In this document: positions 5,298 through 49,700 of the stretch, piece after piece
Layout of the letters: each line of letters opens with the position of its first letter
How positions within the stretch are numbered: position 1 is the stretch's first letter
Origin: an uncultured Candidatus Saccharibacteria bacterium
Lineage (GTDB): Bacteria > Patescibacteriota > Saccharimonadia > Saccharimonadales > JAGQNJ01
NCBI GenBank assembly: GCA_964510945.1
Contig: CAZEED010000002.1
Span: 80,924 to 144,923, forward strand
Length of the DNA stretch: 64,000 nt
Reading direction: 5' to 3'
Notes under the pieces: model-generated
What the model was told of the DNA's origin: nothing
Databases searched by the model: none
What the model saw: the letters and a program-made list of their open reading frames with translations, nothing else
Position numbers and translations under genes: made by a program

Positions 5298-5441
5298 CCC
5301 GTAGCGACCTTATGTGTTTTTATATAATTTGAGGGCATATTGTAACTAATACTCTTGGAAGTATGTTGATCAGTTTTTGTATTTTGTTGAGTTTTATCGG
5401 GATTCATTAGCTTGCCCACCAATAGGCGATTTTTAGTGTTA

Positions 5442-6413: not shown

Positions 6414-6486
6414 ACTTACATATTAGCAAAAGCGGAATAATTTTGTTTAGGAAAAACCAAGCCTCTAATATTAAAACTCAATTAAG

Positions 6487-7818
6487 TTAATTATTGCTCG
6501 TGTTGTTTGAGTCGATTCTGTATGCCCTGTTTCCCACCCAACGAAATTGTGGGTTTACATCTGGAGTTGTTGGCGTTCTTTCTAGTTTTTTGACGATTCT
6601 GCGAGGCATAGCTGCTTTTGCTTCCGCTTTTTTACGAGCTAAGTCTGCATCAAACTTTGCATCCTCAAGGTGCGCTTCATTCCATACTTTACTTATATCT
6701 TCATCTGGGAAGCGATCTCTGTCTTCTAGATGAGCCTCATCCCAGACCTTACTTATTTGCCTATTAGCCTTACGTTTTGCTCGCTCTTTTACTTCTCTGT
6801 CATGTAGTTCAGACTGTCTTTTAGCCTCAACTGACTTTTCTCGGTGTTTTCGGGCTTTTTCTCGTGCCTTTGCACTATCTGATCCATATAAACCACCAGA
6901 CTCATGAAGGATTTGGCCGGCTTTTTTGGTAACAAGTTCTTCAACTCCAACTACCCGTGTTCTATTTCTTTCTGTTGTTCCGGCTTTTGCTACTTGCTGT
7001 ACTATTCTGTCGCCATGTCTGTTTGTTCTTGTAACAAAACCACTAGATTTTGTAGCCTTTATATGAAGCTGTTTTCTCTCCATATCTTCTCTGCTAATTG
7101 CACCGCTACGGTATTGTTCTCTAACTTCACTGAGACGTTCGCGCTGTCGCAACCACGGTTTAATCCCTGCCGTCTGGTTAGAGCTTTTACCTGATTTACT
7201 CTTGAGCACACGTTGTCCACCTAGCTTTCTAGCACGTCTATAAGCTCTATTTTCAATAAATTCTTCAAATTTACTATTTGCAGGTACTGCTTCGACAGTC
7301 TTTCTTCCATCAACTTCTATCACATCAGCAATTCCTTGCGCTTCAACTTCATCAACACCAATTACTTTAGCAATTAGTAACCCGCCTAATTGACGGTAAA
7401 ATTTTGATCTATGTTTGTCTTTTTCAGATTTATCAGTAGATTCTATGGCTTTTCTCTCGGATTTTAACTCTCGCCAAGCGCTAGCATCACGTTTAGCTTC
7501 AGCTCTCTTGTCGCCATAGTCTGACCAGCTTTCGCTGGTTTTTTCTCTAACGGTACTGAATATTCGTTTTATACCACCTATGGCTGTACGACCCGCATCG
7601 ATACTGTGTCCGATTAAATCCTCTGATTTATCCTTAGTCCACTCGCTTGCGGTTGCGGCTACTTGACCGGCACGCTCCAGAAATCTGTCATCGGCTTCAG
7701 TATAAAATGCAGAAGCAGTGCGTACTCTGTCGCCAAAGCTCTGATTAGTCTCGTCTTGTGGACGAGGTTGTTGTAGTTCTTCCAGGGGTGGTGTTTGTTT
7801 TGGCGGAAGTTCCGACAT
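6487..7818 (-). CDS. Hypothetical highly charged (K/R/E-rich) protein in the T4SS-like operon
   Basis: 443-aa ORF with an ATG start. Carries an internal tandem motif ISKVW[DN]EAHLED x2 near the C-terminus. No recognisable domain. Confidence 0.6.
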   Translation of the reverse strand: MSELPPKQTPPLEELQQPRPQDETNQSFGDRVRTASAFYTEADDRFLERAGQVAATASEWTKDKSEDLIGHSIDAGRTAIGGIKRIFSTVREKTSESWSDYGDKRAEAKRDASAWRELKSERKAIESTDKSEKDKHRSKFYRQLGGLLIAKVIGVDEVEAQGIADVIEVDGRKTVEAVPANSKFEEFIENRAYRRARKLGGQRVLKSKSGKSSNQTAGIKPWLRQRERLSEVREQYRSGAISREDMERKQLHIKATKSSGFVTRTNRHGDRIVQQVAKAGTTERNRTRVVGVEELVTKKAGQILHESGGLYGSDSAKAREKARKHREKSVEAKRQSELHDREVKERAKRKANRQISKVWDEAHLEDRDRFPDEDISKVWNEAHLEDAKFDADLARKKAEAKAAMPRRIVKKLERTPTTPDVNPQFRWVGNRAYRIDSNNTSNN

Positions 7819-7909
7819 GAGTGTATATTAACACAAGCTTTATCTATAGTCAATAGCATGATATAGGTTCAATATCTTGTATTAAACCTCACCAAATAAC
7901 GCTGTAATT

Positions 7910-9712: not shown

Positions 9713-9898
9713 ACTATTCCTTACTTACTGCTTGTCCTATTATCATAACTAGTCCGATAACCACAAGCAATACACTAGCTATATTCCTAAAGTAAGACCA
9801 AGCCTCCTTCAACCCATCATCATTAATCTCTGCCCTACCCACCTGCAACATATCAGCTATAGCATTAACCATAGAATCTACAGAAGAGTCGACGATAC
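9711..9898. repeat. 188-bp direct repeat, copy 1 (3-prime end of paralog A plus its stop and flank)
   Basis: Aligned by eye with 10555-10742. One mismatch (A at 9885 versus G at 10729). Similarity drops sharply beyond 9898. Confidence 0.9.
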
Positions 9899-10553
9899 TC
9901 AAGACTAAGCAGACTAGCCATGCACCCGGAAAATCAAAACTGTCTTCACACTTCGGCTCACTATCGTCGGTGCTTGCTGGTGGTGCGGTAGCGGATCCTG
10001 GGGCTTCTGGAGCTTCAACCGGATCCGGCACACCATCAGCATCATCATCAGTACGATCAACAAAATCTTCTGCTATTTCAGTATCGCCGATTGTAGGTTC
10101 TGTTTCGCCTACTGATCTGTCGAGTTTGTCTTTGGATACACGAATTCCTGCAGAATTACTGGAAGGCGAATTCAATAGGCTAGCAAATTGCCACTCGCTA
10201 TTTAGCATAAAATCATCAGAAGATAGAATAAATTGAGGGAGGTCATCTACTGTTTCGGCTCGTTGGTTTGGCCTACAATAAATATATAACCACTTTTTGC
10301 CGTTATCTTTTTTTCTCTTCAGCGTATCTACAAGAGGATTGTTTCCCCCAGCATCCTCTATTAAGTCAATATCTGCTTGAGTTGGGGTTCTCGTTACGTA
10401 TGCACAAGGAAAATCTGTCAAGACGTCTTCTAGGCTATCCAACGAGGGCTCTGCAAGCACAATCCTTGGCGAAAATATCAAGATAAACATCGGTGCTAAC
10501 ACTAAAAGTATCATGAGATAGCTTTGAAGTCTTTTTAAAATGATTTTGTTCAA
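9714..10553 (-). CDS. Secreted/membrane-anchored protein, paralog A: variable acidic ectodomain plus a conserved C-terminal two-helix module
   Basis: 279 aa, TTG start with a signal-peptide-like N-terminus (MNKIILKRLQSYLMILLVLAPMFILIFSPRIVLA). The C-terminal ~62 aa are identical to those of the next gene (...IVDSSVDSMVNAIADMLQVGRAEINDDGLKEAWSYFRNIASVLLVVIGLVMIIGQAVSKE). Confidence 0.7.
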   Translation of the reverse strand: MNKIILKRLQSYLMILLVLAPMFILIFSPRIVLAEPSLDSLEDVLTDFPCAYVTRTPTQADIDLIEDAGGNNPLVDTLKRKKDNGKKWLYIYCRPNQRAETVDDLPQFILSSDDFMLNSEWQFASLLNSPSSNSAGIRVSKDKLDRSVGETEPTIGDTEIAEDFVDRTDDDADGVPDPVEAPEAPGSATAPPASTDDSEPKCEDSFDFPGAWLVCLVLSIVDSSVDSMVNAIADMLQVGRAEINDDGLKEAWSYFRNIASVLLVVIGLVMIIGQAVSKE

Positions 10554-10554
10554 G

Positions 10555-10742
10555 ATACTATTCCTTACTTACTGCTTGTCCTATTATCATAACTAGTCCG
10601 ATAACCACAAGCAATACACTAGCTATATTCCTAAAGTAAGACCAAGCCTCCTTCAACCCATCATCATTAATCTCTGCCCTACCCACCTGCAACATATCAG
10701 CTATAGCATTAACCATAGAATCTACAGAGGAGTCGACGATAC
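10555..10742. repeat. 188-bp direct repeat, copy 2 (3-prime end of paralog B)
   Basis: Same as copy 1, offset 844 bp. Confidence 0.9.
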
Positions 10743-11670
10743 CGAGCACAAAACAAACAATAAATCCCCCGGTAAAATTAAATTGTTCATCGCAAGTCTT
10801 TGGGCTTTCCGGCACAGGTTGGCCAAGACCTAAATCTAATCCGTCACCACAGGCATCTACTGAAAAATCAGCTGGCCCCACAGTACGAACCACTCTTTTA
10901 TTACCCGTCATATTAAGATTGCCAGTATCGAGGAAGACTATATTCGTTCTACCACGACAATCTATTCTGGAATTGTAAAGTAACTCGTATGTATATTTGC
11001 CCGGGTCTACTCTTTTCATGTATTCTCTTTCGTTCGAGTTGATTCCAGTAGGAGTAAAAATAATCGGATCTCCACCACCTTCTGGAGTAATAGAAACTCT
11101 AACTAATTCTGCCTCAGAATCTGTTTTGGGGAATGGTGTTTTTTGCAGATTATTTTCTGGATCCAAAAACGAGAGCACAAAAGTTAACCTTACCTTGTTT
11201 TCTATCTCATCAGTTACATCGATGGTTGTTTCTTTATCGCGTCCACATTCATTGGTTAGATCCACATTTTTTGTAATCTCATCACCCCTACTTGTAGTTA
11301 CTGTTAGTGTGAATTTTGCAAATTCGGCAGTGAATATATCGTTTCCGCCTGTTTCACACCAACCCTTAATATCGATATTGGTAACCTCGAAGTGATCTTC
11401 GTGCCTAGATAGTTCATACGTACTTTCAACACCCTCTAGCTCATCTTGTCGGTCAATTCTTAAGGTTGCATCTGGGTCATCTGGTTCCAGGTAGACAATT
11501 AGCGCTGAATCTTGTGGGTCATCGGGATCTGCATGTCCTGCTGATACTTTATGAGTAGAAAATAATGTCACGCTGGCGACAGGCATTATTAGGGTAAACA
11601 TAAAAATGCTAAGAAACACTAAAATCCTAGACTCTATATTTTTAGATGGCTTTGTTTTGAATGACATCAT
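10558..11670 (-). CDS. Secreted/membrane-anchored protein, paralog B: different Cys-containing ectodomain plus the same C-terminal two-helix module
   Basis: 370 aa with an N-terminal signal/anchor (ILVFLSIFMFTLIMPVASVTLF). Shares the motif C-x-[DE]-x-F-[DN]-F-x-G-x-[WF]-[LI]-V-C and the identical C-terminus with paralog A. The N-terminal ~290 aa show no similarity to paralog A. Confidence 0.7.
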   Translation of the reverse strand: MMSFKTKPSKNIESRILVFLSIFMFTLIMPVASVTLFSTHKVSAGHADPDDPQDSALIVYLEPDDPDATLRIDRQDELEGVESTYELSRHEDHFEVTNIDIKGWCETGGNDIFTAEFAKFTLTVTTSRGDEITKNVDLTNECGRDKETTIDVTDEIENKVRLTFVLSFLDPENNLQKTPFPKTDSEAELVRVSITPEGGGDPIIFTPTGINSNEREYMKRVDPGKYTYELLYNSRIDCRGRTNIVFLDTGNLNMTGNKRVVRTVGPADFSVDACGDGLDLGLGQPVPESPKTCDEQFNFTGGFIVCFVLGIVDSSVDSMVNAIADMLQVGRAEINDDGLKEAWSYFRNIASVLLVVIGLVMIIGQAVSKE

Positions 11671-11736
11671 GCTTACGCTATAATTAAACCATCATCTATA
11701 TCAAAATAGTAATGTTTGTTACTGCACATCAAAAAA

Positions 11737-12318
11737 ATGAATCCGCAAAATCAAAAACCAGAAAACACTAATCCAGACCTTGATTTTATTCGTAATATCA
11801 CCGATCCATTAGAAGCGCCTGTAAAAAAAGGTTTAGATAAAAAGATTATCGTGATAATTGTTTTAGTGGTTATTACCATTGTCGTTATGGTGTTCGGGAT
11901 GATGACTGGCGCAAATAATAAAGTGCAGAAGTCTAGCAAAACCACTAATACATCAATTAGCAGCGATGCAAATGTATCTAAGGCAAAGGATACTCTAATA
12001 CAATATTTTGAATTGATGGCGCAAGGAAACCTCGAGGAAGCCTACAAGTTTTTCAGCGGTGATGCACCGATGACAAAAGAATTATTTGTAAAAGAGAATA
12101 GCACGCTACCAACACAACTAAACTTTTCTAGTTGTGAACCCGTAAGCTCAAACTCTGGATTGGTTGATAAAGAGGGTAAATTGATCCAAACATTTAGGTG
12201 TGATAGCAAGGATGGAAAACAAAGCATAGATTTTGAGTTTCATATGGATAGCTCGGATAACGGGAGTTTAACTATCCACGAGTATTTTATATATTGGCCA
12301 AACTTAGGAATAGAATGA
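11737..12318 (+). CDS. Hypothetical N-terminally membrane-anchored protein, first gene of the plus-strand pilin operon
   Basis: The ORF track starts at TTG 11716, but ATG at 11737 (MNPQNQKPENT...) is preferred. Single TM helix IIVIIVLVVITIVVMVFGMMTG followed by a small soluble domain. Confidence 0.6.
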   Translation: MNPQNQKPENTNPDLDFIRNITDPLEAPVKKGLDKKIIVIIVLVVITIVVMVFGMMTGANNKVQKSSKTTNTSISSDANVSKAKDTLIQYFELMAQGNLEEAYKFFSGDAPMTKELFVKENSTLPTQLNFSSCEPVSSNSGLVDKEGKLIQTFRCDSKDGKQSIDFEFHMDSSDNGSLTIHEYFIYWPNLGIE

Positions 12319-12349
12319 AATATAATATTACCCTAATGGATGCTAGCAA

Positions 12350-13054
12350 ATGATAAGAAGAATCTTTACCTTGTCGTTTCTATATACTTTCAGTGCTATT
12401 TTTATTAGTTCTGGATTACTAATGATGCTTTTCTCTGCCACAGTAATTGCAGAATCTTCAGATGTCTTTCATTTTACGTGCAGATCTCAAGATGGCTCCG
12501 AAGATGATGTTGTTTTAGGCCGAGGAAACCCACCTAAAATAAAATGCGCTACTAGGACTTCGACCCTAGGACGAGCAAATATAGGTCAAGATGACCCCGA
12601 TAACAAATACGATAGTTTTAGAATAACCTGTCAAACCGGAGAGCCAAAACTAAATATACTATCTACATTACCAGAGTGTTCAGACGGATCATCTCCGGTG
12701 GTAGAAGATCTTGACGAAGGTTCGCTAGCCGTTCCTCCTGTAGCGACTACACCTCCTGGCTCCGGGGGGGCTGCCACGGGTCGGTTTGAGTGCACGGGTG
12801 ATGCTTGTGTGACCGACAATCCGATCACAAGATTCTTGATAACCGTTGTTAACTTTTTAAGTGCACTGGTTGGAATAATAGTGATTGCTGTAATTATAAT
12901 AGCCGGGATTCAATACACAACATCAGGGGGGAACCCTCAACAAGCGGCGCAGGCGAAAAAACGAATTATTAATGCCGTCACGGCGCTAGTGGCCTTCTTT
13001 TTCTTGTTTGCGATTTTGCAGTGGTTGATACCAGGGGGTATATTTAAGTCATGA
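12350..13054 (+). CDS. VirB2/TrbC-like T4SS pilin paralog 1, with a ~150-aa extra N-terminal ectodomain
   Basis: The C-terminus LITVVNFLSALVGIIVIAVIIIAGIQYTTSGGNPQQAAQAKKRIINAVTALVAFFFLFAIL matches the two-helix pilin module shared by the next five genes. Cys pair FECTGDAC precedes it. Pro-rich linker VPPVATTPPGSGG. Confidence 0.7.
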   Translation: MIRRIFTLSFLYTFSAIFISSGLLMMLFSATVIAESSDVFHFTCRSQDGSEDDVVLGRGNPPKIKCATRTSTLGRANIGQDDPDNKYDSFRITCQTGEPKLNILSTLPECSDGSSPVVEDLDEGSLAVPPVATTPPGSGGAATGRFECTGDACVTDNPITRFLITVVNFLSALVGIIVIAVIIIAGIQYTTSGGNPQQAAQAKKRIINAVTALVAFFFLFAILQWLIPGGIFKS

Positions 13055-13431
13055 ATCTAATCCCTGCATTGCTATCTAGATTTGCTGCAGCTTGCCCTGA
13101 GCAATCAGTCTTTGGTATCCCGACTTGGTATAAATATTTGCCTGCAGAGACAGTTAACGGTGAATGTAAACTACTCGGTGATTTTGCTCAAAGTAAGTTG
13201 GACTCACTACTAGGTATTGGGCTGGCGATCACTGAGATATTACTTTTTATTGCCGGTTTTTTGGCTATCGTATACGTTGTCTACGGTGGGTTTCGCTACG
13301 TTTTAAGCCAAGGTGAGCCAGAGAATACAAAAATTGCTAAAGACGCTATTTTAAATGCGGTAATTGGGCTGGTTATTGCAGTACTTGCCAGCGCTATTGT
13401 TAGATTTATTGGGAATAGTATATCGACATGA
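13051..13431 (+). CDS. VirB2/TrbC-like T4SS pilin paralog 2
   Basis: 126 aa. Module is LLFIAGFLAIVYVVYGGFRYVLSQGEPENTKIAKDAILNAVIGLVIAVLASAIVRFI. ATGA overlap with the upstream gene. Confidence 0.7.
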   Translation: MNLIPALLSRFAAACPEQSVFGIPTWYKYLPAETVNGECKLLGDFAQSKLDSLLGIGLAITEILLFIAGFLAIVYVVYGGFRYVLSQGEPENTKIAKDAILNAVIGLVIAVLASAIVRFIGNSIST

Positions 13432-13742
13432 TCAACATCCAGTATCTGATGATTAGAGTTGCGCAGTTAATTCCAAATCCGGGCACTAAGTTACCGAATC
13501 AAAATGTGACCGAAGCTAGCCTGCAGACTACGATTGCTAATGTCTTTACGATTGTTTTTGGTGCATTGGGAGCTATCTCGGTGTTAATTATCACGCTAGC
13601 TGGCCTGCAGTACATCATGTCTGGTGGCGATCCAGCCAAGACTGCCAAGGCCAAAGATACCATTATGTACGCTGTAATTGGGTTAGTTGTGGCTGTTTCT
13701 GCGGGGGCGATTGTTAATTTTGTACTTAAGAAGGCGACTTAA
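13428..13742 (+). CDS. VirB2/TrbC-like T4SS pilin paralog 3
   Basis: 104 aa. Module is FGALGAISVLIITLAGLQYIMSGGDPAKTAKAKDTIMYAVIGLVVAVSAGAIVNFV. ATGA overlap with the upstream gene. No Cys pair and no obvious signal peptide. Confidence 0.65.
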   Translation: MINIQYLMIRVAQLIPNPGTKLPNQNVTEASLQTTIANVFTIVFGALGAISVLIITLAGLQYIMSGGDPAKTAKAKDTIMYAVIGLVVAVSAGAIVNFVLKKAT

Positions 13743-13746
13743 GAAT

Positions 13747-14127
13747 ATGCTGAGAAAACTCTCATTACTACTGCTAACAATTTTTAGTTGTTTTTATGTA
13801 GCGTTCCCAGCTGTAGTACTAGCGACTGATCCAATCGAACAAGTTTGCCAGATTAATCCAGATTCGTCGGTTTGTAAATCATCTACAACCGAAAATCCTA
13901 TATTTGGCTCAAAAGGCATAATAACTAGAATCACAAAAGTATTAGGGTTTGTTGTCGGAGTAGCCGCCGTGATCATGATTATTATCAACGGATTTAAGTT
14001 TGTGCTATCGAATGGCAATCCCGAGAATGTAACCAAGGCAAAGAACGGAATAATTTTTGCCATAATTGGGCTTTTGGTTGCCTTGTTTGCAGAGGCTATT
14101 GCAATTTTTGTAATGCAGAGGCTATAG
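13747..14127 (+). CDS. VirB2/TrbC-like T4SS pilin paralog 4
   Basis: The track ORF starts at 13687 and overlaps the previous gene. ATG 13747 gives a signal peptide MLRKLSLLLLTIFSCFYVAFPAVVLA, a Cys pair QVCQINPDSSVC, and the module VGVAAVIMIIINGFKFVLSNGNPENVTKAKNGIIFAIIGLL. Confidence 0.75.
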   Translation: MLRKLSLLLLTIFSCFYVAFPAVVLATDPIEQVCQINPDSSVCKSSTTENPIFGSKGIITRITKVLGFVVGVAAVIMIIINGFKFVLSNGNPENVTKAKNGIIFAIIGLLVALFAEAIAIFVMQRL

Positions 14128-14153
14128 TATTAACAGAAAAAAGGATAACAAAA

Positions 14154-14609
14154 ATGAACAAATCAAAAATCAAAAACATCTTTTTAAGCTTTATGCTCGT
14201 GCTGGGTATGATTACGCCAGTATCTTTTGCTATTCAATCTAATGCTTTTGCTTTGGTAGATGATACTCCAGCCGGTGATGGCATTGACCCAACCGCCGAG
14301 GTATCTTCGGCACAAAGCGATGTATGTAATGGAATCAAGGCCACCGGCGGGACATGTGATGATGCCCCAGGCGCCAAAACTGTCAAAGACATTATTGCAC
14401 TTGCAATCAATATTCTGAGCTTTATTGTCGGAGTAGCCGCCGTGATCATGATTATTATCAACGGATTTAAGTTTGTGACTTCTAGCGGGGAAACAGCGGC
14501 AGTGGCTAGCGCCAAGAACGGAATAATCTTTGCAGTTATTGGTTTGGTGGTGGTTGCTTTGGCTCAAGTAATTGTCAGATTCGTAGTTAATAGAGCGACT
14601 GGTCTATAG
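14154..14609 (+). CDS. VirB2/TrbC-like T4SS pilin paralog 5
   Basis: Signal peptide, Cys pair DVCNGIKATGGTC, and module VGVAAVIMIIINGFKFVTSSGETAAVASAKNGIIFAVIGLVV. Confidence 0.75.
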   Translation: MNKSKIKNIFLSFMLVLGMITPVSFAIQSNAFALVDDTPAGDGIDPTAEVSSAQSDVCNGIKATGGTCDDAPGAKTVKDIIALAINILSFIVGVAAVIMIIINGFKFVTSSGETAAVASAKNGIIFAVIGLVVVALAQVIVRFVVNRATGL

Positions 14610-14681
14610 ATACACTTGTATTGCGTATCAACAATGCTTATGATAAATTTAAACTAACAACAAACATAAGGAAACACACTA

Positions 14682-15101
14682 ATGAATAAACTTATCAAGC
14701 GAATAACTTTAACTACAATAGCTTTATTTACAATTTTAGCACCGGCAGGTCTTGCCGTCTCCCCAGTTTTTGCAGTTTCGGACGCTAATATCGATGATAA
14801 CCTATGTAAGGGTGCAAATCTTGATGTTACCGATGGTACCTGTTCTACTGATCCCGTAGAAGCACAACAGACTGTAAACGATATTATCGCAACCGTTATT
14901 AATATATTCTCGATCGTTGTTGGTGTAACAGCGGTGATTATGATAATTGTTGGAGGCTTTCAGTATATTACCTCTGGTGGTGATAGTGGTAAGGTGACGA
15001 CAGCCAAGAACACCATATTATTTGCGATAGTCGGTCTAGTTATAGTCGCGCTTGCTCAGGTAATAGTTAACTTTGTCCTATCAAAAGCCATAGACGTTTA
15101 A
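14682..15101 (+). CDS. VirB2/TrbC-like T4SS pilin paralog 6
   Basis: Signal peptide, Cys pair NLCKGANLDVTDGTC, and module VGVTAVIMIIVGGFQYITSGGDSGKVTTAKNTILFAIVGLVI. Confidence 0.75.
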   Translation: MNKLIKRITLTTIALFTILAPAGLAVSPVFAVSDANIDDNLCKGANLDVTDGTCSTDPVEAQQTVNDIIATVINIFSIVVGVTAVIMIIVGGFQYITSGGDSGKVTTAKNTILFAIVGLVIVALAQVIVNFVLSKAIDV

Positions 15102-23577: not shown

Positions 23578-23985
23578 ATGGACACGATAAAGTATCTATA
23601 TACTTATTTACTAACTGTTCCGGTTTTTTTTGCTATTGATATGATTTGGCTTGGTTTAGTAGCCAAGGGTTTATATGCAAAAGAACTATCTAAATTCTTA
23701 ACTGATAAACCAAATTGGGTCGCTGCGGCAGTATTCTATCTTGCCTATATTGCCGGGATTATTGTTTTGGCCGTAATGCCGGCAGTGGAAAAACAATCAC
23801 TGATAAAGGCCGTAGTTTTAGGCGGAGTTTTTGGTGGTCTGGCTTACGCAACTTATGATCTAACTAATCTTGCCACACTAAAAGATTGGCCAATAAAGAT
23901 TGTAATCATAGACATAATCTGGGGTATGTTACTGACCGCTATTGTTGCCGCAATTAGTTATCAGATCGCAAACTGGGTAAGGTGA
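23578..23985 (+). CDS. DUF2177-like integral membrane protein
   Basis: 135 aa, 4 TM helices, N-terminal pattern [21 protein letters not shown] recalled from DUF2177. Confidence 0.45.
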
Positions 23986-24755
23986 ATATGAACGAAGTAA
24001 TTATTCAATCCGCAGTAATTGTCTGGGTGTATATGACGCTTTGGTCTATTTACGCCATCGTTAATAAACGTAACGATGTTGCTGATTTCGCATGGGGCCT
24101 TGGTTTTCCAGTTCTGGCAATGATCCTACTCCAAATTAACTCATCTACATCCGTAAAAGCTTTACTGATAACAATGCTAATATCGATATGGGGTATCCGG
24201 CTGGCCCTTCATATTTATCCTCGGCTTAGTAAAAAACATGAAGATTTTCGTTATGATCAGATGCGCTTAAAGTGGGGTAAATCCGCTAATATCAGATCAT
24301 ATTTTCAAGTATTTATGCTACAAGGTTTATTTTTGCTTCTTATTAGCGCTTCGACCATGGTTGCGGTGAATGGTAGTGAAACGTTTTTTAATATCAACGC
24401 TGTTGGTATTGCGGTGTGGGTTATTGGCTTTTTGTTCGAATCTATCGGTGATTATCAGCTTAGTCGTTTTATCAAGAATCCTGCCAACAAGGGAAAAGTT
24501 ATGACTGAAGGCCTATGGAGATATACGCGTCACCCCAACTATTTTGGCGAAATTACTCAGTGGTGGGGTATATGGTTGATTGTAATTGGTGCTACGAATT
24601 GGCAATTTGCCATAATTAGCCCAATAACAATTACCATTTTGATATATTTTGTATCGGGTGTACCACTGTTAGAGAAAAAGTACAAAGACAACCATGCCTA
24701 TAAAGAATATGCAAAAAAGACTAGCAAATTCTTTCCCCTTCCCCCTCGTAAATAA
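23982..24755 (+). CDS. DUF1295 / steroid-5-alpha-reductase-like membrane protein
   Basis: [14 protein letters not shown] motif in a polytopic protein. Confidence 0.75.
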
Positions 24756-28410: not shown

Positions 28411-28806
28411 ATGGCAGATTCGATATTTACCAAGATTATAAAGGGGGAGATTCCTTGTCATAAGCTGTATGAAGATGACAAGACTATCGCTTTTTTGGAT
28501 ATTCATCCTATTGCTGATGGTCATACGTTGATTGTGCCTAAAAAACAGATTGAATTTGTCTGGGATTTGCCTAACGAGGATTACCAGGCTGTGATGAAAA
28601 CGACCAAAATTGTTGCCCTAAGGCTCCGAGAGGTACTTCCCTTCACCTTCGTTAGTGAGCGAATTGTTGGTGTTGATGTACCACACGCGCACGTCCAGTT
28701 AATCCCTTTTAATCATTCGGATGAACTAAGCCGACAGCAAGATATGAGCTCTGAGCCCGATCATGAGGCTTTGGCTAAAATAGCAGAACGACTCAAGATT
28801 AGTTAA
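28411..28806 (+). CDS. HIT-family (histidine triad) nucleotide hydrolase/transferase, with a variant triad
   Basis: The N-terminus ADSIFTKIIKGEIPCHKLYEDDKTIAFLDIHP is typical of Hint-like proteins. The triad region reads VPHAHVQLIPF (H-x-H-x-Q rather than H-x-H-x-H). Confidence 0.8.
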   Translation: MADSIFTKIIKGEIPCHKLYEDDKTIAFLDIHPIADGHTLIVPKKQIEFVWDLPNEDYQAVMKTTKIVALRLREVLPFTFVSERIVGVDVPHAHVQLIPFNHSDELSRQQDMSSEPDHEALAKIAERLKIS

Positions 28807-28884
28807 ATCCCTAAAAGCCGATGCCCGCTAACCCAAAGAAGCACAATATTCCACTATACCTAATGTAAGTGGTAGTATATTGAT

Positions 28885-29067
28885 ATGTCTAATGGATTAG
28901 TCGCATTTATGTTAGGAGCTGGGGCTGGGGCTTGGGTTTACTCTGTAATGATGAAGCGAACAGGTAGCAATACTACTAACTCTTTGGTTGTGGCAGGGAT
29001 AGCGGGGTTGTTTGGGTTTGTGGCAATGCTAGTCCTACTGTCTTTTATAAAAAATATGCTTGGCTAG
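28885..29067 (+). CDS. Small two-helix membrane protein
   Basis: 60-aa ORF, Gly/Ala-rich helices. Confidence 0.4.
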   Translation: MSNGLVAFMLGAGAGAWVYSVMMKRTGSNTTNSLVVAGIAGLFGFVAMLVLLSFIKNMLG

Positions 29068-29123
29068 CATTAAAGCGCTAATAATACTTCCCTCTCAATA
29101 CAAAAACTAGTATTATATGGTTA

Positions 29124-29984
29124 ATGGATAATGTGGGTGAACAGCAAGTGGTTGAGAAATTTGGCAAACGTTTGCAAGAAGCGCGCCAGCAAGCGGGACT
29201 AACCCAGCAAGATTTATGTGATCAGGCCGATTTGTCATATTCTACGTTGGCAAAGATTGAGCGTGGGGCAATTAAATCTCCATCGGTTTTTACTGTCGAG
29301 AAGATTGCCGATGTTATTGGCGTAACCGTTGACAGCCTACTAGGTAGGCAATCTGAAGTGACAACAGCTGAAAAAAAGATTTCAAAGAGTGGAATAAGAT
29401 TTGTGTACTTTGATATTAACGGTTGTTTGGTGCGGTTTTTTCACCGAGCATTTACGCAACTGGCAGAAGAATCTGGTGTGTCACTAGAAAAGATCGAATC
29501 TGTATTCTGGCGTTATAACGATCAGATTAACAGAGGTGAGATGACTATGGACGAGTTTAACAAGCTTCTTGCTACTCATCTTGGGAAAGATAATGTCGCT
29601 TGGCAGGACTACTACCTAGATGCGGTTGATCCAATTAAGGAAATGCACGAATTAGTAAATTGGGCTCATGAACATTACAAGATTGGTCTATGTAGCAACA
29701 GTATGCCTGGGATAATCGATAACTTACTTGAAAAAGATCTAATCCCCGATATTGATTACGATGTAGTTATCGATAGCTCGGAAGTCCATTCAATAAAGCC
29801 AGAAAAAAAGATTTATGAAATAGCAGAAGAAAAAGCCGGTGTGAAGCCGGATGAAATACTGCTGATAGACGATACTAGAGCCAATCTGATGGCCGCAGAG
29901 CGTATGGACTGGAAAGTGCTTTGGTTTGATGATTATCGCGCGTCAGACAGCGTAGAACGCGTCAAACAAGTACTCGAGTTCTAG
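29124..29984 (+). CDS. XRE-type helix-turn-helix domain fused to a HAD-superfamily hydrolase-like domain
   Basis: HTH: FGKRLQEARQQAGLTQQDLCDQADLSYSTLAKIERG. HAD motifs: I VYFDINGCL (D-x-N instead of D-x-D), II GLCSNS, III HSIKPEKK, IV LLIDDTRANL. Confidence 0.7.
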   Translation: MDNVGEQQVVEKFGKRLQEARQQAGLTQQDLCDQADLSYSTLAKIERGAIKSPSVFTVEKIADVIGVTVDSLLGRQSEVTTAEKKISKSGIRFVYFDINGCLVRFFHRAFTQLAEESGVSLEKIESVFWRYNDQINRGEMTMDEFNKLLATHLGKDNVAWQDYYLDAVDPIKEMHELVNWAHEHYKIGLCSNSMPGIIDNLLEKDLIPDIDYDVVIDSSEVHSIKPEKKIYEIAEEKAGVKPDEILLIDDTRANLMAAERMDWKVLWFDDYRASDSVERVKQVLEF

Positions 29985-43086: not shown

Positions 43087-43686
43087 CTATTTCTTTTTGT
43101 TGGTGAAGTAGTTGATTTCGTTAACGATATCTAGCATGGCCTGAGCACGTTTTTTATCATCTTTGATGTCTTTAGCAGCATTAAAAACTGATCCGATTAG
43201 AGATTGATCGTCGGTTGCTTGAATCATCATCAGTAGTGTCATGGTCTTCTCTTCTGGGGTTTGGTCTAGTTTGTCTATAAGTGGCGAGAGTTCTTCGAGG
43301 GCGCTACGCTTTATGTCCATCAGCTCACTGGATGGAGCGGGGGATGAGTCTGATGTTGCTGAGAAATCTACACTATCTGTTTTGTCAGCATCATCTGAAT
43401 CTGTTGCGGGAACTATTGGATCGTCGGTTTCTGACTTGTCATCATCATCGCCTTGATCATTTGCTGGAGTTTCGTTAGCGTCTGTTGATGCGTTGATATT
43501 CTCAACGATGTCGTTGATGTCCTTGTCTTGATTATCATCATTATTTGATGTATCAGATGAATCATCATCTGAAGTTGTCGAATTATTATCGTCTACACCA
43601 AGTAGCTTCTCATCAGCCGGTGTTGTGCTGATAGGATGAATTACATTGTCGTTATCTTTTTTGTCTTCTTTGTCGTGCCCGAACAT
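43087..43686 (-). CDS. Hypothetical very acidic low-complexity protein
   Basis: 199 aa, D/S/N-rich, structured C-terminal ~70 aa. Confidence 0.5.
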   Translation of the reverse strand: MFGHDKEDKKDNDNVIHPISTTPADEKLLGVDDNNSTTSDDDSSDTSNNDDNQDKDINDIVENINASTDANETPANDQGDDDDKSETDDPIVPATDSDDADKTDSVDFSATSDSSPAPSSELMDIKRSALEELSPLIDKLDQTPEEKTMTLLMMIQATDDQSLIGSVFNAAKDIKDDKKRAQAMLDIVNEINYFTNKKK

Positions 43687-43756: not shown

Positions 43757-44785
43757 ATGCTGGATGATTTAAAACAGATACATTATAGAGATAAAAGTGA
43801 CGCACTGGGTATAGCCGAGAAACAATGGCAACAGTTAGAACACGATTTTGAAGTAGAAAATATTGAAGGTAATTTTGAAAACGTCGTCTACGTAGGTATG
43901 GGCGGATCGGCGTTATCGGCAAGATTAAGCATGACATGGCCGGGCTATAACGTGCCTTTTGAGATTGTCTCTAATTATAATATTCCGCACTACGTATCAA
44001 AAAATACGTTGTTTGTGGTCTGTAGTTATTCTGGTAATACCGAAGAAACTATATCAGCCTATAATCAGGCGAATAAAACTGAGGCTACAATTGTAGTAAT
44101 TTCTTGCGGTGGTGAACTAGAGAGATTAGCCGCAGAACGAGGGCATATTTTTGTGCAGATTCCGCCGGTATCTCAACCAAGGTTTGCGACCTTATATATT
44201 CTAAAGGCGCTGATCACTGTTTTAGAGCGAGCGGGACTAGTTAAGGTATATGATGCAGAGAATCAGATACATAGCGCATCAGAGTTTTTAAAAGAATCGA
44301 TTAATGCATGGTTGCCAACAGTGCCGACGGCTAAAAACGAAGCAAAACAAATAGCTCAGGATGTTATGGGTACGAGTGCGGTAATCTACTCAGGGCCACT
44401 ATTGGCGCCAGTGGCATATAAATGGAAAATTAGCTTTAACGAGAACGCTAAAAACGTGGCGTGGTGTGGGCAATATCCAGAGTTTGATCATAATGAATTT
44501 GTAGGCTGGTTGGCCCAGCCTATAGAAAAACCCTACACCGTTATTGACCTTCGTAGCAATCTAGAACATCCGCAAGTGCAAAAACGCTTCATGCTTAGCG
44601 ATAAATTATTGTCGGGCAAACGACCTCATCCAATTGTGGTAGAAGTAGAAGGTGATAGTATTCTAGAACAATTGCTTTACGCAGTTGCACTGGGCGATTT
44701 TGTTAGTCTCTACACCGCAATTCTAAATAATGTCGATCCAACTGAAGTTGCCTTGATGGAAAAACTCAAAAAAGAACTAGCCTAA
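43757..44785 (+). CDS. Bifunctional phosphoglucose/phosphomannose isomerase family (SIS domain)
   Basis: VGMGGSALSARL, VVCSYSGNTEET. Size and layout are typical of the PGI/PMI family. Confidence 0.75.
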   Translation: MLDDLKQIHYRDKSDALGIAEKQWQQLEHDFEVENIEGNFENVVYVGMGGSALSARLSMTWPGYNVPFEIVSNYNIPHYVSKNTLFVVCSYSGNTEETISAYNQANKTEATIVVISCGGELERLAAERGHIFVQIPPVSQPRFATLYILKALITVLERAGLVKVYDAENQIHSASEFLKESINAWLPTVPTAKNEAKQIAQDVMGTSAVIYSGPLLAPVAYKWKISFNENAKNVAWCGQYPEFDHNEFVGWLAQPIEKPYTVIDLRSNLEHPQVQKRFMLSDKLLSGKRPHPIVVEVEGDSILEQLLYAVALGDFVSLYTAILNNVDPTEVALMEKLKKELA

Positions 44786-44863: not shown

Positions 44864-45334
44864 CTATCCCCTGGGTTTACTTGCTCTATCAATTTTATTT
44901 CTAGCAAGCTTAGTTACTAAAGCTGCCGCCTTTGCTGCTGAAACAGGATTGGCTTGAATTGGTCGTTCTCTTGTAACTGGTTGACCAAAAACATGCTTAT
45001 ATCTTTTACCGTCTGGGAGTTGGCGATCTACATCTGCCCATCCAACAGCATCGGTAGCTGAAGTTTCATGCTCTGTAGCATATCTGCCCGCACCACTTTT
45101 TACAGCAGCATATGTCAAAGTATTACTACCCCGATCTTCTATTCTTGCACTCACAGGACGTGAGTCATCTGTGTTCGATGCTATCCCTCCTTGATAAAAA
45201 GTTGTTTCACCATATTTTTGCGGTTCGGCATGGGTTGGAGACTCAGGTCCATTTAGAACTACACGTAATTCATCATCGGCTTGTCTTATTGTTTCTTCCT
45301 GACCATGCATTTCTATCAGTTCCGCTCGTTTCAT
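44864..45334 (-). CDS. Hypothetical protein
   Basis: 156-aa ORF. No motif. Confidence 0.45.
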   Translation of the reverse strand: MKRAELIEMHGQEETIRQADDELRVVLNGPESPTHAEPQKYGETTFYQGGIASNTDDSRPVSARIEDRGSNTLTYAAVKSGAGRYATEHETSATDAVGWADVDRQLPDGKRYKHVFGQPVTRERPIQANPVSAAKAAALVTKLARNKIDRASKPRG

Positions 45335-45438: not shown

Positions 45439-45987
45439 CTAGATTGGTTTGTCTTTCAATTTAAGAAGATAGCCTATATAGCCGGCTATTAAATGTAGGC
45501 TGAACCAAATTATTAGTATTAATAAATAGGTTCTTGCACTTAGCAGTACGATCGGCATTGATAGGATAATACCTCCGATAATGAAATCAATTTGATCATA
45601 TGGGAACCAGCTGTCTCCTGGCTTAACATGTGATCGGCGTTTGAAAAAACTCTCTACCGCATCGCCAAGCAGAGCACCTAAACCAAGTAGTCCACCAAGT
45701 ACTGTCATAGTTAGGGCTGGACTGTTTGACGCTATCCCAAGCTCGTTGATAAAGTCCGGATAAATTAAAAATTGTATGTAGGCAGTTAGTGCACCAAATA
45801 TCATGCCGAAGATTAAACCACGCCAGCGTTTGTTGTCACCAAAGATTCGTTTGCCGTTAAAACTTTTACCGAAGTCCATTGGTGTATTTAACCTATTGAT
45901 CCTTGGTATTTTGTTGGCCCAAGTGGGGGAGGCATTGGCAATACCAGCCGGAAGGAAAAACCAGATTACAAGCAGTAATTCATTCAT
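45439..45987 (-). CDS. CDP-archaeol synthase-like (CarS/DUF46 family) membrane protein
   Basis: FLPAGIANASPTWANKIP, GDNKRWRGLIFG, GDAVESFFKRR, WFPYDQIDFIIG match the CarS/DUF46 pattern from memory. 4-nt overlap with the upstream PHP gene. Confidence 0.65.
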   Translation of the reverse strand: MNELLLVIWFFLPAGIANASPTWANKIPRINRLNTPMDFGKSFNGKRIFGDNKRWRGLIFGMIFGALTAYIQFLIYPDFINELGIASNSPALTMTVLGGLLGLGALLGDAVESFFKRRSHVKPGDSWFPYDQIDFIIGGIILSMPIVLLSARTYLLILIIWFSLHLIAGYIGYLLKLKDKPI

Positions 45988-46649
45988 TTAGTTGTTCTCT
46001 TTCGTCTATCAAATTTTTGGCGCAAGCGATGGGCTTTGGGGTAGAGGAGGGTCTTTAGCGGAGGGCGACTCATTTTCATATGACCAAGATTAAGTTGTTG
46101 AATTAGATTATGTACTGTTGGCTCTACTTGGGCCAATGAGTAGGCTGTACCTAGGCCTTTTTGGCCGTGAGCATCGCTACTGGCGGCGGCAACTTTTTGA
46201 TTTACCCTAGCCCAGACGCTGGCTTCAGGGCCCTTGTTCTGCATCAGCGCACGCCCGTTATAGACTTCTACTATGTCTATATAATCTTTTATTGAATCGA
46301 GTAGGCTTTTTGGCAGGCCTTTTCTGACGGTTTCAAACGGGTGAGGAATGTACACCAGACCACCTTGTTTTTTAATCTGCTTGGCTGCCTGTTCGGCGTG
46401 TAACCCTGGTTTTATGGTCTCGGACAAGAATAGTCCAATGATTTCGCCCTCGCGACAGGTGATTTCTTCGCCAACAATTATTTTGTCACCAAGACTGGCT
46501 TTTAAGGCGCGAGCATTTTTGGTTGTGTTGTGGTCGGTAATGGCTACGAAATCTAGTAGTCCTTCACCGATTACATTAATGTATTGATCGATTGTAATTC
46601 CGCCGTCAGGGCTTGCCGTAGAATGTGTGTGAAGATCAACTTTATACAT
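45984..46649 (-). CDS. PHP-domain metal-dependent phosphoesterase
   Basis: MYKVDLHTHSTASPDG, VAITDHN, IPHPFE, SSDAHG. Confidence 0.8.
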   Translation of the reverse strand: MYKVDLHTHSTASPDGGITIDQYINVIGEGLLDFVAITDHNTTKNARALKASLGDKIIVGEEITCREGEIIGLFLSETIKPGLHAEQAAKQIKKQGGLVYIPHPFETVRKGLPKSLLDSIKDYIDIVEVYNGRALMQNKGPEASVWARVNQKVAAASSDAHGQKGLGTAYSLAQVEPTVHNLIQQLNLGHMKMSRPPLKTLLYPKAHRLRQKFDRRKRTTK

Positions 46650-46653
46650 ATTG

Positions 46654-47283
46654 TTATAGCTCGGGTAGCACTTTTATTAATCGCCAAAAAGCCGTTAGCC
46701 AAGTTGTTATTGCGAGAATAACGATTGCGCCAGACAAAAAGTTAAATACTAGTCCAATGACCAAAACGAACATCCGAACTTCGTAACGCATCAGTCCACC
46801 TTTGAATAATCGGTTGATTTGATTGGCCGATAGATCCTTATCTTTAACGGCGGTTTCTGCCTTGGCTTTAACATAACTAACTAGCAACGCCCCAGCGCAG
46901 ACGGCTACAGTCCAAACCGCAAAAATCTCTAAATTATTTTGAACAAAAAAGTAGGCAACCCCAATGTATAACAAGCTTTCTTTCATTCGATCAGTGCTGG
47001 CATCAAGCACCATCCCGCGAGGGCTATCAGTCTTTTGTAAACGTGCCAGCTCGCCGTCAAGAGTGTCGAACAACCCAAATATTACTAATAAAATTGCTGC
47101 CGGAATAAAGCTACCTATAGCGATTAGGTAGGCAATTGGTAAATGCGCAACTAGGCTGATATAGGTGATAGCAGAAGGGGATATTTTACCGCGACTGAGT
47201 TTATTTAATAGACCTGCTATGCCTCTCATTGGTTTTCGGACGGATCTACCGGCAAAGTCAATTATCGAATCCATGACAATCAT
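46654..47283 (-). CDS. CDP-alcohol phosphatidyltransferase family protein
   Basis: DTLDGELARL ... DASTDRMKE corresponds to D-x2-D-G-x2-A-R ... D-x3-D. Multi-TM. Confidence 0.85.
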   Translation of the reverse strand: MIVMDSIIDFAGRSVRKPMRGIAGLLNKLSRGKISPSAITYISLVAHLPIAYLIAIGSFIPAAILLVIFGLFDTLDGELARLQKTDSPRGMVLDASTDRMKESLLYIGVAYFFVQNNLEIFAVWTVAVCAGALLVSYVKAKAETAVKDKDLSANQINRLFKGGLMRYEVRMFVLVIGLVFNFLSGAIVILAITTWLTAFWRLIKVLPEL

Positions 47284-47327
47284 TATAACCTGTAAGTGTA
47301 TAAAAAACCGAGTATACTAGTTAACAT

Positions 47328-48011
47328 ATGAGTGAGAGAAAAAGAGTCCCTTTCACGATGCAGGTTTTATTAACGTTGCTGGCCTCGTCGGCGATTAGTC
47401 TGGTGCTTTTAGGTATTAGAGTCTTGGTATCAGGCAAATTTAGCTTTTGGTTCTTATCTTGGAATTTGGTTTTAGCTTGGGTCCCCTTAATCTTTGCATT
47501 AGCTCTTCGTATCCGACTATTTAAACATCCGTTTTTAACATGGCAATCTATGGGATTGTTCATCTTGTGGCTAGGATTCTTGCCGAATAGCTTTTATTTA
47601 ATGAGTGACCTTATACATCTGCAAAGTTCTGGCGACACAGTCATCTTGTTCGATATTGCTATGGTAATGAGCTTTATTATTAACGGCTTAATACTGGGCT
47701 ATATGAGTGTATATATTGTCCATTCGTTACTACGACCACGGATGAGTAGATATCAATCGTGGTTTGTTATTCAACTGGTCTTTTTAGCGTCTAGTTTTGC
47801 TATTTATTTGGGTAGGTATTTACGGTGGAACACTTGGGATCTTTTATTTAATCCGTTTGGACTAATATTCGATATATCAGAACGCATTATTAACCCGGTG
47901 CTTCACATACAAACGTATATTGTTACCTTCACCTTTTTTATAGTACTTAGCGCAACCTATACAATTGTCTATCAACTAGCTCATGTATTGAGCGGGGAAG
48001 TAAAAAGTTAA
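47328..48011 (+). CDS. DUF1361-like integral membrane protein
   Basis: WNLVLAWVPLIFAL and GFLPNSFYLMSDLIHL resemble the DUF1361 signature. Confidence 0.6.
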   Translation: MSERKRVPFTMQVLLTLLASSAISLVLLGIRVLVSGKFSFWFLSWNLVLAWVPLIFALALRIRLFKHPFLTWQSMGLFILWLGFLPNSFYLMSDLIHLQSSGDTVILFDIAMVMSFIINGLILGYMSVYIVHSLLRPRMSRYQSWFVIQLVFLASSFAIYLGRYLRWNTWDLLFNPFGLIFDISERIINPVLHIQTYIVTFTFFIVLSATYTIVYQLAHVLSGEVKS

Positions 48012-48032: not shown

Positions 48033-49700
48033 ATGCAGGAGATTAGAGAATTATTCAAAACTGGAGTCAAAGAAGCATTTGGTGTTGAGATTGATTTTGA
48101 TTTATCTATTCCAGAAGAAAAATTTGGTGACTTTTCTAGCAATATCGCCCTAATACTAGCAAAAAAGCTAAATTTAAAACCACATCAGGTCGCTGAAAAA
48201 ATAATCGAAACACTTCCAAATAACAGCATTATAAATAAAATCGATATTGCTGGCCCAGGGTTTATCAACATTACTATAGCTGACGATGTGTTATTTGATT
48301 TAGCAAACAAAGCAACGACAATAAAGCCCCAAACCTACAAGGATGAGGTGGTAGTAGCCGAGTATTCTGACCCCAATCCTTTTAAGGTACTACATGCTGG
48401 GCACGTATATACAACGGTGGTAGGCGATGGCATTGCGACATTATTCGAAATAGCTGGCGCAAAAGTACATCGAGTTAATTTTGGTGGTGATGTTGGTCGT
48501 CACGTTGCTATTACCTTGTGGGTAATTTTACAAAAGCTCGGTGGCGAAAATCCTGAAAAACTTAATAATATCCCAGCAAAAGATAGAACACAGTGGCTAG
48601 CAGATTGTTATGTTGAAGGGAATAATATTTTCGAGACTGATGAATATATTAAAACAGAAATGATAGCGTTAAATAAACGAATATATAAAATCCATGCAGA
48701 TAATGACCATGAAAGTAATTTTGCCAAGATTTATTGGTTAGCTCGCCAGTGGAGCTATGAGGCTTTTGATGCTTTCTATGCACGACTCGGTGCAAAAATG
48801 GAAAAATACTATCCAGAAAGTGAAGTTGCTGATCTTGGGATAGCAAAAGTTAATGAACAACTAGCAAAGGGCGTTTTTGAAAAATCTGATGGTGCAGTTA
48901 TCTTTCCTGGCGAAAAATATGATCTTCACACAAGGGTTTTTATTAATTCCGAAGGCTTGCCAACCTATGAAGCTAAAGACATTGGTGTAGTACTACAAAA
49001 ATACGAAGATTATCATTTCGATAGATCAGTGATTGTTACAGACAACGAACAGCAACAGTACATGTCAGTAATTATAAAGGCGATTGAACAGTTTGCCCCA
49101 AAACTCGCGGCGGCTACAACTTATATTCCTCACGGAAAAGTAAAACTGGCTGGTGGAGTAAAAATGAGTTCACGTAAAGGAAATATCATTAAAGCTAGCG
49201 ATGTTTTAGATGTGACCGCACAGGCTCTGCTTGAATCAGATCGTAATCCTGAAGATGAAGTGGTTTTAGCAGCTGTAAAATATGCATTTTTGAAATATAG
49301 AATCGGGGGTGACATCATCTACGATCCAAAAGAGTCAGTTAGTTTACAGGGTAACAGCGGGCCGTACCTTCAGTATGCACATGCAAGGGCGTGTTCAATT
49401 TTGGCAAAAGTAAAAAATACTCCGCCGACTGAACACAATTTTGAATCTATGGAACGTAGTTTGGCGAGAAAAATTGGCGAATACCCAGAGGTAGTTGACA
49501 AGGCTGTAACTGACTTGATGCCACACCATATTGCAGTGTACCTATACGAATTAGCCCAAGCTTTTAATCGTTTTTATGAAAAAAACCGAGTTGTTGACGA
49601 TAAGCGGGAGTCAATTAGGGTGCAATTAGTAAAGGCATATAGAGATACTTTAGCTGACGGATTGTCTATTCTGAAGATTAAAGCCCCAGAGAAAATGTAA
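48033..49700 (+). CDS. argS: Arginine--tRNA ligase
   Basis: SDPNPFKVLHAGHV (HIGH), KMSSRKGN, C-terminal anticodon-binding helix bundle. Confidence 0.95.
   Translation: MQEIRELFKTGVKEAFGVEIDFDLSIPEEKFGDFSSNIALILAKKLNLKPHQVAEKIIETLPNNSIINKIDIAGPGFINITIADDVLFDLANKATTIKPQTYKDEVVVAEYSDPNPFKVLHAGHVYTTVVGDGIATLFEIAGAKVHRVNFGGDVGRHVAITLWVILQKLGGENPEKLNNIPAKDRTQWLADCYVEGNNIFETDEYIKTEMIALNKRIYKIHADNDHESNFAKIYWLARQWSYEAFDAFYARLGAKMEKYYPESEVADLGIAKVNEQLAKGVFEKSDGAVIFPGEKYDLHTRVFINSEGLPTYEAKDIGVVLQKYEDYHFDRSVIVTDNEQQQYMSVIIKAIEQFAPKLAAATTYIPHGKVKLAGGVKMSSRKGNIIKASDVLDVTAQALLESDRNPEDEVVLAAVKYAFLKYRIGGDIIYDPKESVSLQGNSGPYLQYAHARACSILAKVKNTPPTEHNFESMERSLARKIGEYPEVVDKAVTDLMPHHIAVYLYELAQAFNRFYEKNRVVDDKRESIRVQLVKAYRDTLADGLSILKIKAPEKM

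Follow-up and report, generated by a model that had tools for sequence, protein, structure and literature searches.

The logic of activating a lipid phosphate to a cytidine diphosphate (CDP) lipid, transferring it to a phosphorylated alcohol and removing the extra phosphate is textbook knowledge, and several described systems follow it. In the archaeal archaetidylinositol pathway, CarS is succeeded by an archaetidylinositol phosphate (AIP) synthase and an AIP phosphatase. Mycobacteria and other Actinobacteria make phosphatidylinositol (PI) by means of CdsA, the phosphatidylinositol phosphate (PIP) synthase PgsA1/PIPS and a phosphatase, and the mycobacterial PIP phosphatase is reported to have no gene assigned to it as yet (PMC6506517). 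The inositol-lipid cluster of Bacteroides brings together an inositol-1-phosphate synthase (MIPS, BT_1526), a PIPS (BT_1523) and a PgpA-family PIP phosphatase (BT_1525), the latter being the only PIP phosphatase identified in bacteria in the literature examined (PMC9246714). Here, we describe a three-gene operon that may be compared with all of them, located at positions 45439-47283 of a stretch of 64,000 nucleotides (hereafter the window) of contig CAZEED010000002.1, which derives from an uncultured bacterium. Judging by the closest homologues of the three proteins, all found in metagenome-assembled genomes (MAGs) of Candidatus Saccharibacteria (82-97% identity), the source organism is a Saccharibacterium, within the Patescibacteria or candidate phyla radiation (CPR). 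The operon likely serves CDP-lipid-dependent head-group synthesis on a scavenged lipid, as suggested by the families, residues and gene arrangements detailed below. With moderate confidence only, we propose a fuller reading, in which salvaged phosphatidic acid (PA) or diacylglycerol (DAG) would be converted to CDP-diacylglycerol, then to PIP and finally to PI by a CarS-like, a PIPS/AIPS-like and a PHP-family protein.

The operon resembles the archaeal route by its CarS family member, recognized by sequence, motifs and predicted fold, by a transferase of the same class, the best NCBIfam match of which is AIPS, and by a three-step logic passing through a phosphorylated intermediate. It departs from that route by its occurrence in a bacterium, where no ether-lipid core genes were seen among the neighbours examined and where the partners of CarS in related lineages are DAG kinases and PgsA, as well as by its compact organization, which includes the gene of a candidate PHP phosphatase. 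With mycobacterial and actinobacterial PI synthesis it shares a transferase nearest to PIPS structures, with the catalytic motif and the inositol-phosphate ligands kept, and the need for a dephosphorylation; however, activation would here be of the CarS and not of the CdsA type, the transferase scores under the PIPS equivalog cut-off, and a dedicated phosphoesterase gene lies within the operon. Similarly, PIPS and phosphatase are clustered in Bacteroides along the same PIP-to-PI logic, but the phosphatase there is of the PgpA and not of the PHP type, no MIPS was recognized in the present cluster or among the window genes examined, and a CarS-type CDP-lipid synthase forms part of the cluster described here.

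Transcription runs on the minus strand from the gene of a CDP-alcohol phosphatidyltransferase (46654-47283; 209 amino acids), through that of a soluble PHP-family metal-dependent phosphoesterase, the candidate PIP phosphatase (45984-46649; 221 amino acids), to that of a CarS-like cytidine triphosphate (CTP):lipid-phosphate cytidylyltransferase (45439-45987; 182 amino acids). The first two genes are separated by a 4-nt gap (TAA-CAAT-ATG) and the last two overlap by 4 nt (ATGA), as read from the sequence; the tight minus-strand trio described by a first-pass annotation of the window was thereby recovered, with all three open reading frames (ORFs) in place. For comparison, 80 related genome loci were used, nearly all from Saccharibacteria or Patescibacteria.

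The product of the last gene is a true CarS-family protein and not a CdsA. The first-pass annotation had set beforehand that its reading would fall if this protein failed to match the CarS/DUF46 profile; the match to PF01864 reaches 126.5 bits (cut-off 22) and covers positions 5-173 of the 175 of the profile, and the NCBIfam equivalog for CDP-archaeol synthase, NF003114, is matched at 150.7 bits (cut-off 148). As relatives in the other loci score 121-133 bits on the latter model, under its cut-off, the clade stands at the edge of this equivalog. The alignment with CarS of Aeropyrum pernix (ApCarS, PDB 5GUF) runs from end to end (phmmer E 3.4e-11, residues 4-181 against 14-173), with about 36% identity over 158 aligned residues. 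The AlphaFold model, made of five long helices (predicted local distance difference test, pLDDT, 91.7), is superposed by Foldseek on the same structure with template modelling (TM) scores of 0.70/0.80 and a root-mean-square deviation of 2.2 A. Furthermore, the motifs PAGxAN, GDxxxSFxKR and DQxD are invariant in 25 CarS-like relatives. With bacterial CdsA the protein shares the proposed reaction and the superfamily, as seen from a weak 28-bit match of residues 52-122 only to the C-terminal part of PF01148. Identity with CdsA was nonetheless rejected, since the CdsA equivalog NF008635 gives 18.7 bits against a cut-off of 385, the PROSITE signature PS01315 has no match in the protein, five helices stand against nine, and the Foldseek comparison with Thermotoga CdsA (TmCdsA, 4Q2E) yields a TM score of 0.38 (E 1.1). 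A profile of the clade retrieved 2690 representatives at E<=1e-3, among which 351 at E<=1e-30, from 1.84 billion proteins. The NCBI annotation names proteins of this kind CDP-archaeol synthase in Saccharibacteria MAGs. A regular expression for the CdsA signature found no match in the window and the 80 related loci (934 kb in total), which is a weak stand-in for a genome-wide search.

The first gene was said to encode a CDP-alcohol phosphatidyltransferase with the motif DTLDGELARL...DASTDR. The quoted motif is present and PF01066 is matched at 51.6 bits (cut-off 22). The top NCBIfam models are AIPS (94.6 bits), PIPS (83.8 bits), PIPS of the Bacteroides BT_1523 type (57.2 bits) and di-myo-inositol-phosphate-phosphate (DIPP) synthase (48.5 bits), all four annotated as inositol-phosphate enzymes, with E values of 1e-27 to 1e-13 for AIPS, PIPS and DIPPS. 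The closest solved structures are mycobacterial (6H53, 6WM5) and Renibacterium PIPS, with profile E values from 4.6e-16 (6H53) to 1e-13. In line with the likeness to PIP or archaetidyl pathways noted at first pass, the enzyme is closest to the inositol-phosphate-using PIPS/AIPS enzymes. The motif D1xxD2GxxAR...GxxxD3xxxD4 is kept, D73, D76, G77, A80, R81, G90, D94 and D98 being invariant in 20 orthologues. Grave et al. (2019, PMC6506517) attribute the binding of the substrate phosphate in MtPgsA1 to four residues, R94, S132, R155 and R195, close to which lie K135 and R137. According to the HMMER alignment to 6H53, R99, S136, K139, K141 and R201 are the counterparts of R94, S132, K135, R137 and R195, and R166 and R170 fall in the region of R152/R155, in a register that is uncertain; all seven residues are invariant in the same orthologues.

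The PHP protein required structural arguments, as its match to PF02811 reaches 26.3 bits, just below the cut-off of 26.4, next to 60 bits for the CehA/McbA metallohydrolase domain. The identity given at first pass was secured by the AlphaFold model (pLDDT 85.5), which matches 7UG9, 3E38 and 2ANU with a Foldseek probability of 1.0, and by the metal ligands H7, H9, D15, H40, E62, H103, D159 and H161, invariant in 30 homologues. These homologues also share, without variation, the motif RPPLxxLLYPK in the C-terminal part, after which comes a basic helix. No hydrophobic segments were found in the protein, and Pfam, NCBIfam and PDB searches gave PHP-type matches only, without homology to the PgpA, PgpB/PAP2, PgpC or GEP4 HAD types. 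The structural matches comprise the PHP domain of RNase AM, BVU_3505, TM0559, PsfC and the pAp phosphatase Cv1693; as none of them is a lipid phosphatase, a lipid role is suggested by the genomic context only. A defence role of the PHP, DUF1361 and 156-amino-acid proteins of the region was considered and discarded, the single weak PADLOC match (the PHP protein to PDC-M49A, E 0.0018, 14.9 bits) being taken as noise.

The gene arrangement is widely conserved. The transferase, PHP and CarS genes follow each other on the same strand in 59 of the 80 loci, with proteins at 40-60% identity, and their spacing varies little, from about -4 to +19 nt between transferase and PHP (56 of these 59 loci) and from about -25 to +15 nt between PHP and CarS (63 of 64 loci). 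Given the strong profile matches and this conserved arrangement, chance is no explanation for the trio. The PHP gene adjoins the CarS-like gene in 68 of the 80 loci and accompanies a PIPS/AIPS-like transferase in 64; it is absent from most of the loci of the lipid-kinase type that have no such transferase. The distribution of PHP follows that of the PIPS/AIPS-like transferase and not that of CarS in general.

The remaining architectures give CarS other partners. In L054, L063, L037, L076 and L077, it has as neighbours on its two sides a DAGK_cat lipid kinase (YegS/BmrU/DgkB-type) and a second, different CDP-alcohol transferase (in L054, kinase and transferase module at 5087-6052 and 6552-7172), and both this kinase-type module and the module of the window are present in L031 and L062. 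A lipid kinase and a fusion of PgsA with a YqeG-type HAD domain (PGP_phosphatase) precede CarS in L072 (3767-5855). A further arrangement is that of L043, L022 and L049, where PHP, a protein of 320 amino acids and CarS form an operon transcribed divergently from the gene of an AIPS-like transferase (153.8 bits), with DgkA nearby. Finally, at least two fusions of CDP-OH_P_transf with a CarS-like domain occur among the matches listed (P0446 and P0458; 330-336 amino acids), with the transferase N-terminal and the CarS-like domain C-terminal. P0458 corresponds to USN53187.1 in the complete Nomurabacteria genome CP060223.1 (L081, 8001-8993), between the housekeeping genes gyrB and secE-nusG(-rplK). 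The presence of CarS beside lipid kinases and alternative transferases, the Nomurabacteria fusion and the lack of any CdsA signature in the 934 kb searched support a role in lipid salvage.

The additional protein of the L043-type loci is itself conserved. With a size of about 310-320 amino acids, it is encoded between PHP and CarS in L043 (5040-6002, plus strand), L022 and L049, and directly upstream of CarS in L021, from a WS6 genome (5076-6008). Searches of Pfam, NCBIfam and PDB sequences with the protein of L043-type loci returned no match. It may be a lipid or inositol kinase, as the motifs VKEGRWDL, TDNIIV and IDTRWFWD look kinase-like by eye.

The analysis shows that the proteins belong to the families named and keep their catalytic residues, that the translational coupling of their genes is conserved, and that these functions are repeatedly found together or fused; a pathway may be proposed on this basis. 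In a first step, the CarS-like membrane enzyme would use CTP to activate a salvaged lipid phosphate to a CDP-lipid, taking the place of CdsA. The substrate would most likely be PA, imported directly or obtained from host DAG by a lipid kinase encoded elsewhere, and the lipid is probably of the diacyl type because the partners in related lineages are DAG kinases and PgsA. In a second step, a phosphorylated alcohol would receive the phosphatidyl group through the PIPS/AIPS-like transferase; with myo-inositol-1-phosphate as the most likely acceptor, the product would be PIP. In a third step, which we put forward most cautiously, the soluble PHP metallo-phosphoesterase, aided by its basic C-terminal helix, might strip the extra phosphate to give PI, which could then anchor glycolipids similar to phosphatidylinositol mannosides (PIMs). 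The first-pass annotation had read this succession of activation, transfer and dephosphorylation from the gene order. This reading is supported, and its logic gains from the conserved coupling, from the lipid kinases and alternative partners beside CarS and from the fusion of transferase and CarS. A small correction concerns the order, as the genes are transcribed as transferase, PHP and CarS, which differs from the order of the proposed reactions.

Several observations weigh against the proposed route from salvaged PA or DAG to PI. Purified archaeal CarS strongly prefers digeranylgeranylglyceryl phosphate (DGGGP) over PA, and archaeal CarS (AfCarS) failed to complement an E. coli cdsA mutant (reviewed in PMC9385802), so that the use of PA by the present enzyme would require a shift in specificity. 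The transferase stays under all curated cut-offs (180 bits for AIPS, NF040950; 170 bits for PIPS, NF045883) and, scoring so far below those of its best families, is related to them but diverged, and falls short of a certified equivalog. For the PHP protein, the nearest relatives by structure have RNA or nucleotides as substrates, none being a lipid phosphatase, and MIPS is missing from the genes recognized in the window. L044, L053 and L073 have PHP and CarS but no PIPS-like gene next to them, and L080 has a PIPS-like gene beside CarS but no PHP. Saccharibacterial genomes are moreover highly syntenic, which inflates the apparent conservation of the operon; the rearranged architectures therefore count for more than the 59 loci out of 80. 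Lastly, the complete gene tables of the cultured Southlakia epibionticum ML1 hold no CarS-like, CdsA, DAG-kinase or DUF1361 domains (bioRxiv 10.1101/2023.05.02.539146, Tables S1 and S2), from which it follows that the operon is not essential to this lifestyle. This species has a single CDP-alcohol phosphatidyltransferase, SEML1_0297, with few transposon insertions, and a TagD-like cytidylyltransferase (bioRxiv 10.1101/2023.05.02.539146); this hints that reduced lineages may follow another route, starting from a CDP-alcohol donor.

The acceptor could also be glycerol-3-phosphate, in which case the transferase would be a divergent phosphatidylglycerophosphate (PGP) synthase, the PHP protein a PGP phosphatase and the product phosphatidylglycerol. 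This is unlikely, although the Joint Genome Institute (JGI) pipelines do label the orthologues of the transferase as PGP synthase, glycerol-3-phosphate too would need a phosphate-binding pocket, the PIPS and AIPS scores lie under their cut-offs, and the sister architecture of L072 clearly places PgsA and a PGP-phosphatase-like HAD domain beside CarS. The pgsA model TIGR00560 has no match to the window transferase at E<=0.01, to be compared with the E values of 1e-27 to 1e-13 obtained with AIPS, PIPS and DIPPS, and the entries retrieved by the PDB profile search include PIPS structures but none that carries the annotation of a PGP synthase. The Arg that follows D4, said to be conserved in users of inositol phosphate, is present in the transferase, whereas a PgsA-type enzyme of the same phylum has a Lys there. 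The very existence of this separate PgsA-type enzyme in the phylum implies a distinct specificity for the transferase of the window.

The assignment of PIP dephosphorylation to the PHP protein meets an alternative of its own. The protein may be no lipid phosphatase, but a co-transcribed housekeeping enzyme, such as a nuclease similar to RNase AM or a pAp phosphatase, or a pyrophosphatase that pulls the CarS reaction by removing pyrophosphate, the lipid phosphate being removed by another enzyme or kept. The best structural matches, RNase AM, the pAp phosphatase Cv1693 and PHP proteins without assigned function, are in line with such a role, as are the three loci in which PHP stays beside CarS without an adjacent PIPS-like gene; besides, no PHP-family lipid phosphatase was met in the literature examined or among the structural matches. 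We nevertheless consider it quite unlikely. A general helper of CarS, for example a pyrophosphatase, is disfavoured because PHP is missing from most of the loci that pair CarS with the other type of transferase. The rearranged loci of the L043 type, too, bring PHP together with an AIPS-like gene. The equivalent slot in L072 is held by the HAD PGP-phosphatase domain fused to PgsA, and the tight translational coupling of PHP is conserved.

A CarS-like enzyme oriented towards isoprenoids, acting on a lipid similar to archaetidic acid or on a polyprenyl phosphate, would have the operon make an unusual isoprenoid inositol lipid or the anchor of an envelope polymer, which is highly improbable. The cut-off of the archaeal CarS equivalog NF003114 is passed and the model superposes on ApCarS at 2.2 A, while the partner transferase scores slightly higher on the archaeal AIPS than on the bacterial PIPS model, and markedly so in L043. 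Homologues of GGGPS and DGGGPS have also been reported in a Parcubacteria genome (PMC7852524). On the contrary, no glycerol-1-phosphate dehydrogenase (G1PDH), GGGPS or DGGGPS was seen among the window ORFs and the locus neighbours examined, for which no dedicated profile scan was run, and in related loci the neighbouring genes encode lipid kinases of the diacylglycerol type and PgsA. The hosts of Saccharibacteria known so far are bacteria. The lipids of CPR organisms measured in situ are ordinary fatty-acid lipids (PMC7242380). A di-myo-inositol-phosphate osmolyte pathway was rejected, as the cytidylyltransferase, a CarS, is an integral membrane protein and differs in this from the soluble IPCT, and as DIPPS comes only fourth among the models.

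The synthesis of PI on salvaged PA or DAG fits what has been described of these organisms. CPR bacteria, Saccharibacteria included, lack fatty-acid and complete phospholipid synthesis according to published descriptions (PMC7242380; PMC12592800), in agreement with the first-pass annotation, which had expected an organism scavenging the lipids of its host. Starr et al. (2018) had already predicted, independently, that a Saccharibacterium scavenges lipids and has a route from CDP-DAG through PI to PIMs, with a PI synthase and a putative phosphatidate cytidylyltransferase (PMC6031116). Our literature search retrieved no paper linking Saccharibacteria or CPR with a CarS operon, though a paper on Patescibacteria and CDP-archaeol synthase could have escaped it, and the term CarS is not used by Coleman (2019). 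Beyond the pathway logic, the prediction of 2018 and the name CDP-archaeol synthase given by NCBI, what would be new is thus a bacterial CarS-type enzyme in an apparent CdsA role, together with a PHP protein as a candidate for the dephosphorylation of PIP.

The operon, its variant architectures and the fusion define a compact module of lipid kinase, CarS-type activation, head-group transfer and dephosphorylation. With such a module, the cells would be able to remodel the lipids of the host before using them, which bears on the way in which CPR/Patescibacteria build membranes without fatty-acid synthesis. A PHP phosphoesterase is also put forward as a candidate for the conversion of PIP to PI. 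The apparent use of a CarS-family enzyme in the role of CdsA in a large bacterial phylum bears on the lipid divide between archaea and bacteria. A group-wide extension, according to which Patescibacteria would make CDP-lipids by CarS-type enzymes, sometimes fused to a transferase, in place of CdsA, and the PHP protein would represent a new class of PIP/PGP phosphatases, is tentative and somewhat doubtful; if true, it would provide a candidate family for the PIP phosphatase step left unassigned in published work on mycobacteria. Should the CarS-like enzyme accept both acyl and isoprenoid lipids, epibionts could re-head the lipids of bacterial or archaeal hosts.

Upstream of the operon, a divergent intergenic region of 44 nt (47284-47327) is presumed to hold the promoter; a consensus scan for promoters and terminators gave no site above the shuffled background. 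It separates the operon from a gene on the plus strand (47328-48011) for an integral membrane protein, which matches PF07099 at 122.9 bits and has five hydrophobic segments, so that the divergent DUF1361 protein named at first pass is confirmed. This protein has no sequence relative in the PDB, and its own family PF07099 is its only Pfam match. DUF1361 is adjacent in most loci and keeps this place in L044 and L053, which have no transferase, and in L066, where transferase and PHP are both absent; with genomes so syntenic, adjacency alone is weak evidence of a functional link. Similarly, in most of the 80 loci the operon lies between a bifunctional phosphoglucose/phosphomannose isomerase (PGI/PMI; 43757-44785, plus strand, convergent) and, on the far side of DUF1361, an arginyl-tRNA synthetase (48033-49700, plus strand), which probably reflects general synteny and not a functional link. 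PGI makes glucose-6-phosphate, the precursor of inositol-1-phosphate. Between PGI/PMI and the operon, an ORF of 156 amino acids (44864-45334, minus strand) matches no family. Ahead of it, in a spacer reaching 45438, lies the site of the region that most resembles a promoter (45419-45391). The ORF is present only in the closest relative, L002, and other contigs with an identical CarS protein have PGI directly after CarS, which argues for a strain-variable insertion.

Elsewhere in the window, a type IV secretion-like cluster (2509-15101) carries genes typical of Saccharibacteria. Among its products are a TraG/VirB4-like ATPase (2509-4437), two or more confirmed paralogues of T4SS_pilin (13687-14609) and large membrane proteins without annotation, and further similar small membrane proteins, seen as ORFs only, extend up to 15101. 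At 23578-24755 (plus strand), a DUF2177 membrane protein is followed by an overlapping DUF1295 protein (steroid-reductase, PEMT and ICMT-like; 235.8 bits), and the two may form another pair of lipid-modifying membrane enzymes. An extremely acidic protein of 199 amino acids, encoded at 43087-43686 (minus strand), is of low complexity, rich in Asp, Ser and Asn, and has no family match. Finally, at 28411-29984 (plus strand), a HIT-family protein is followed by a helix-turn-helix domain of the Cro/C1 type fused to a HAD hydrolase, an unusual fusion of regulator and phosphatase.

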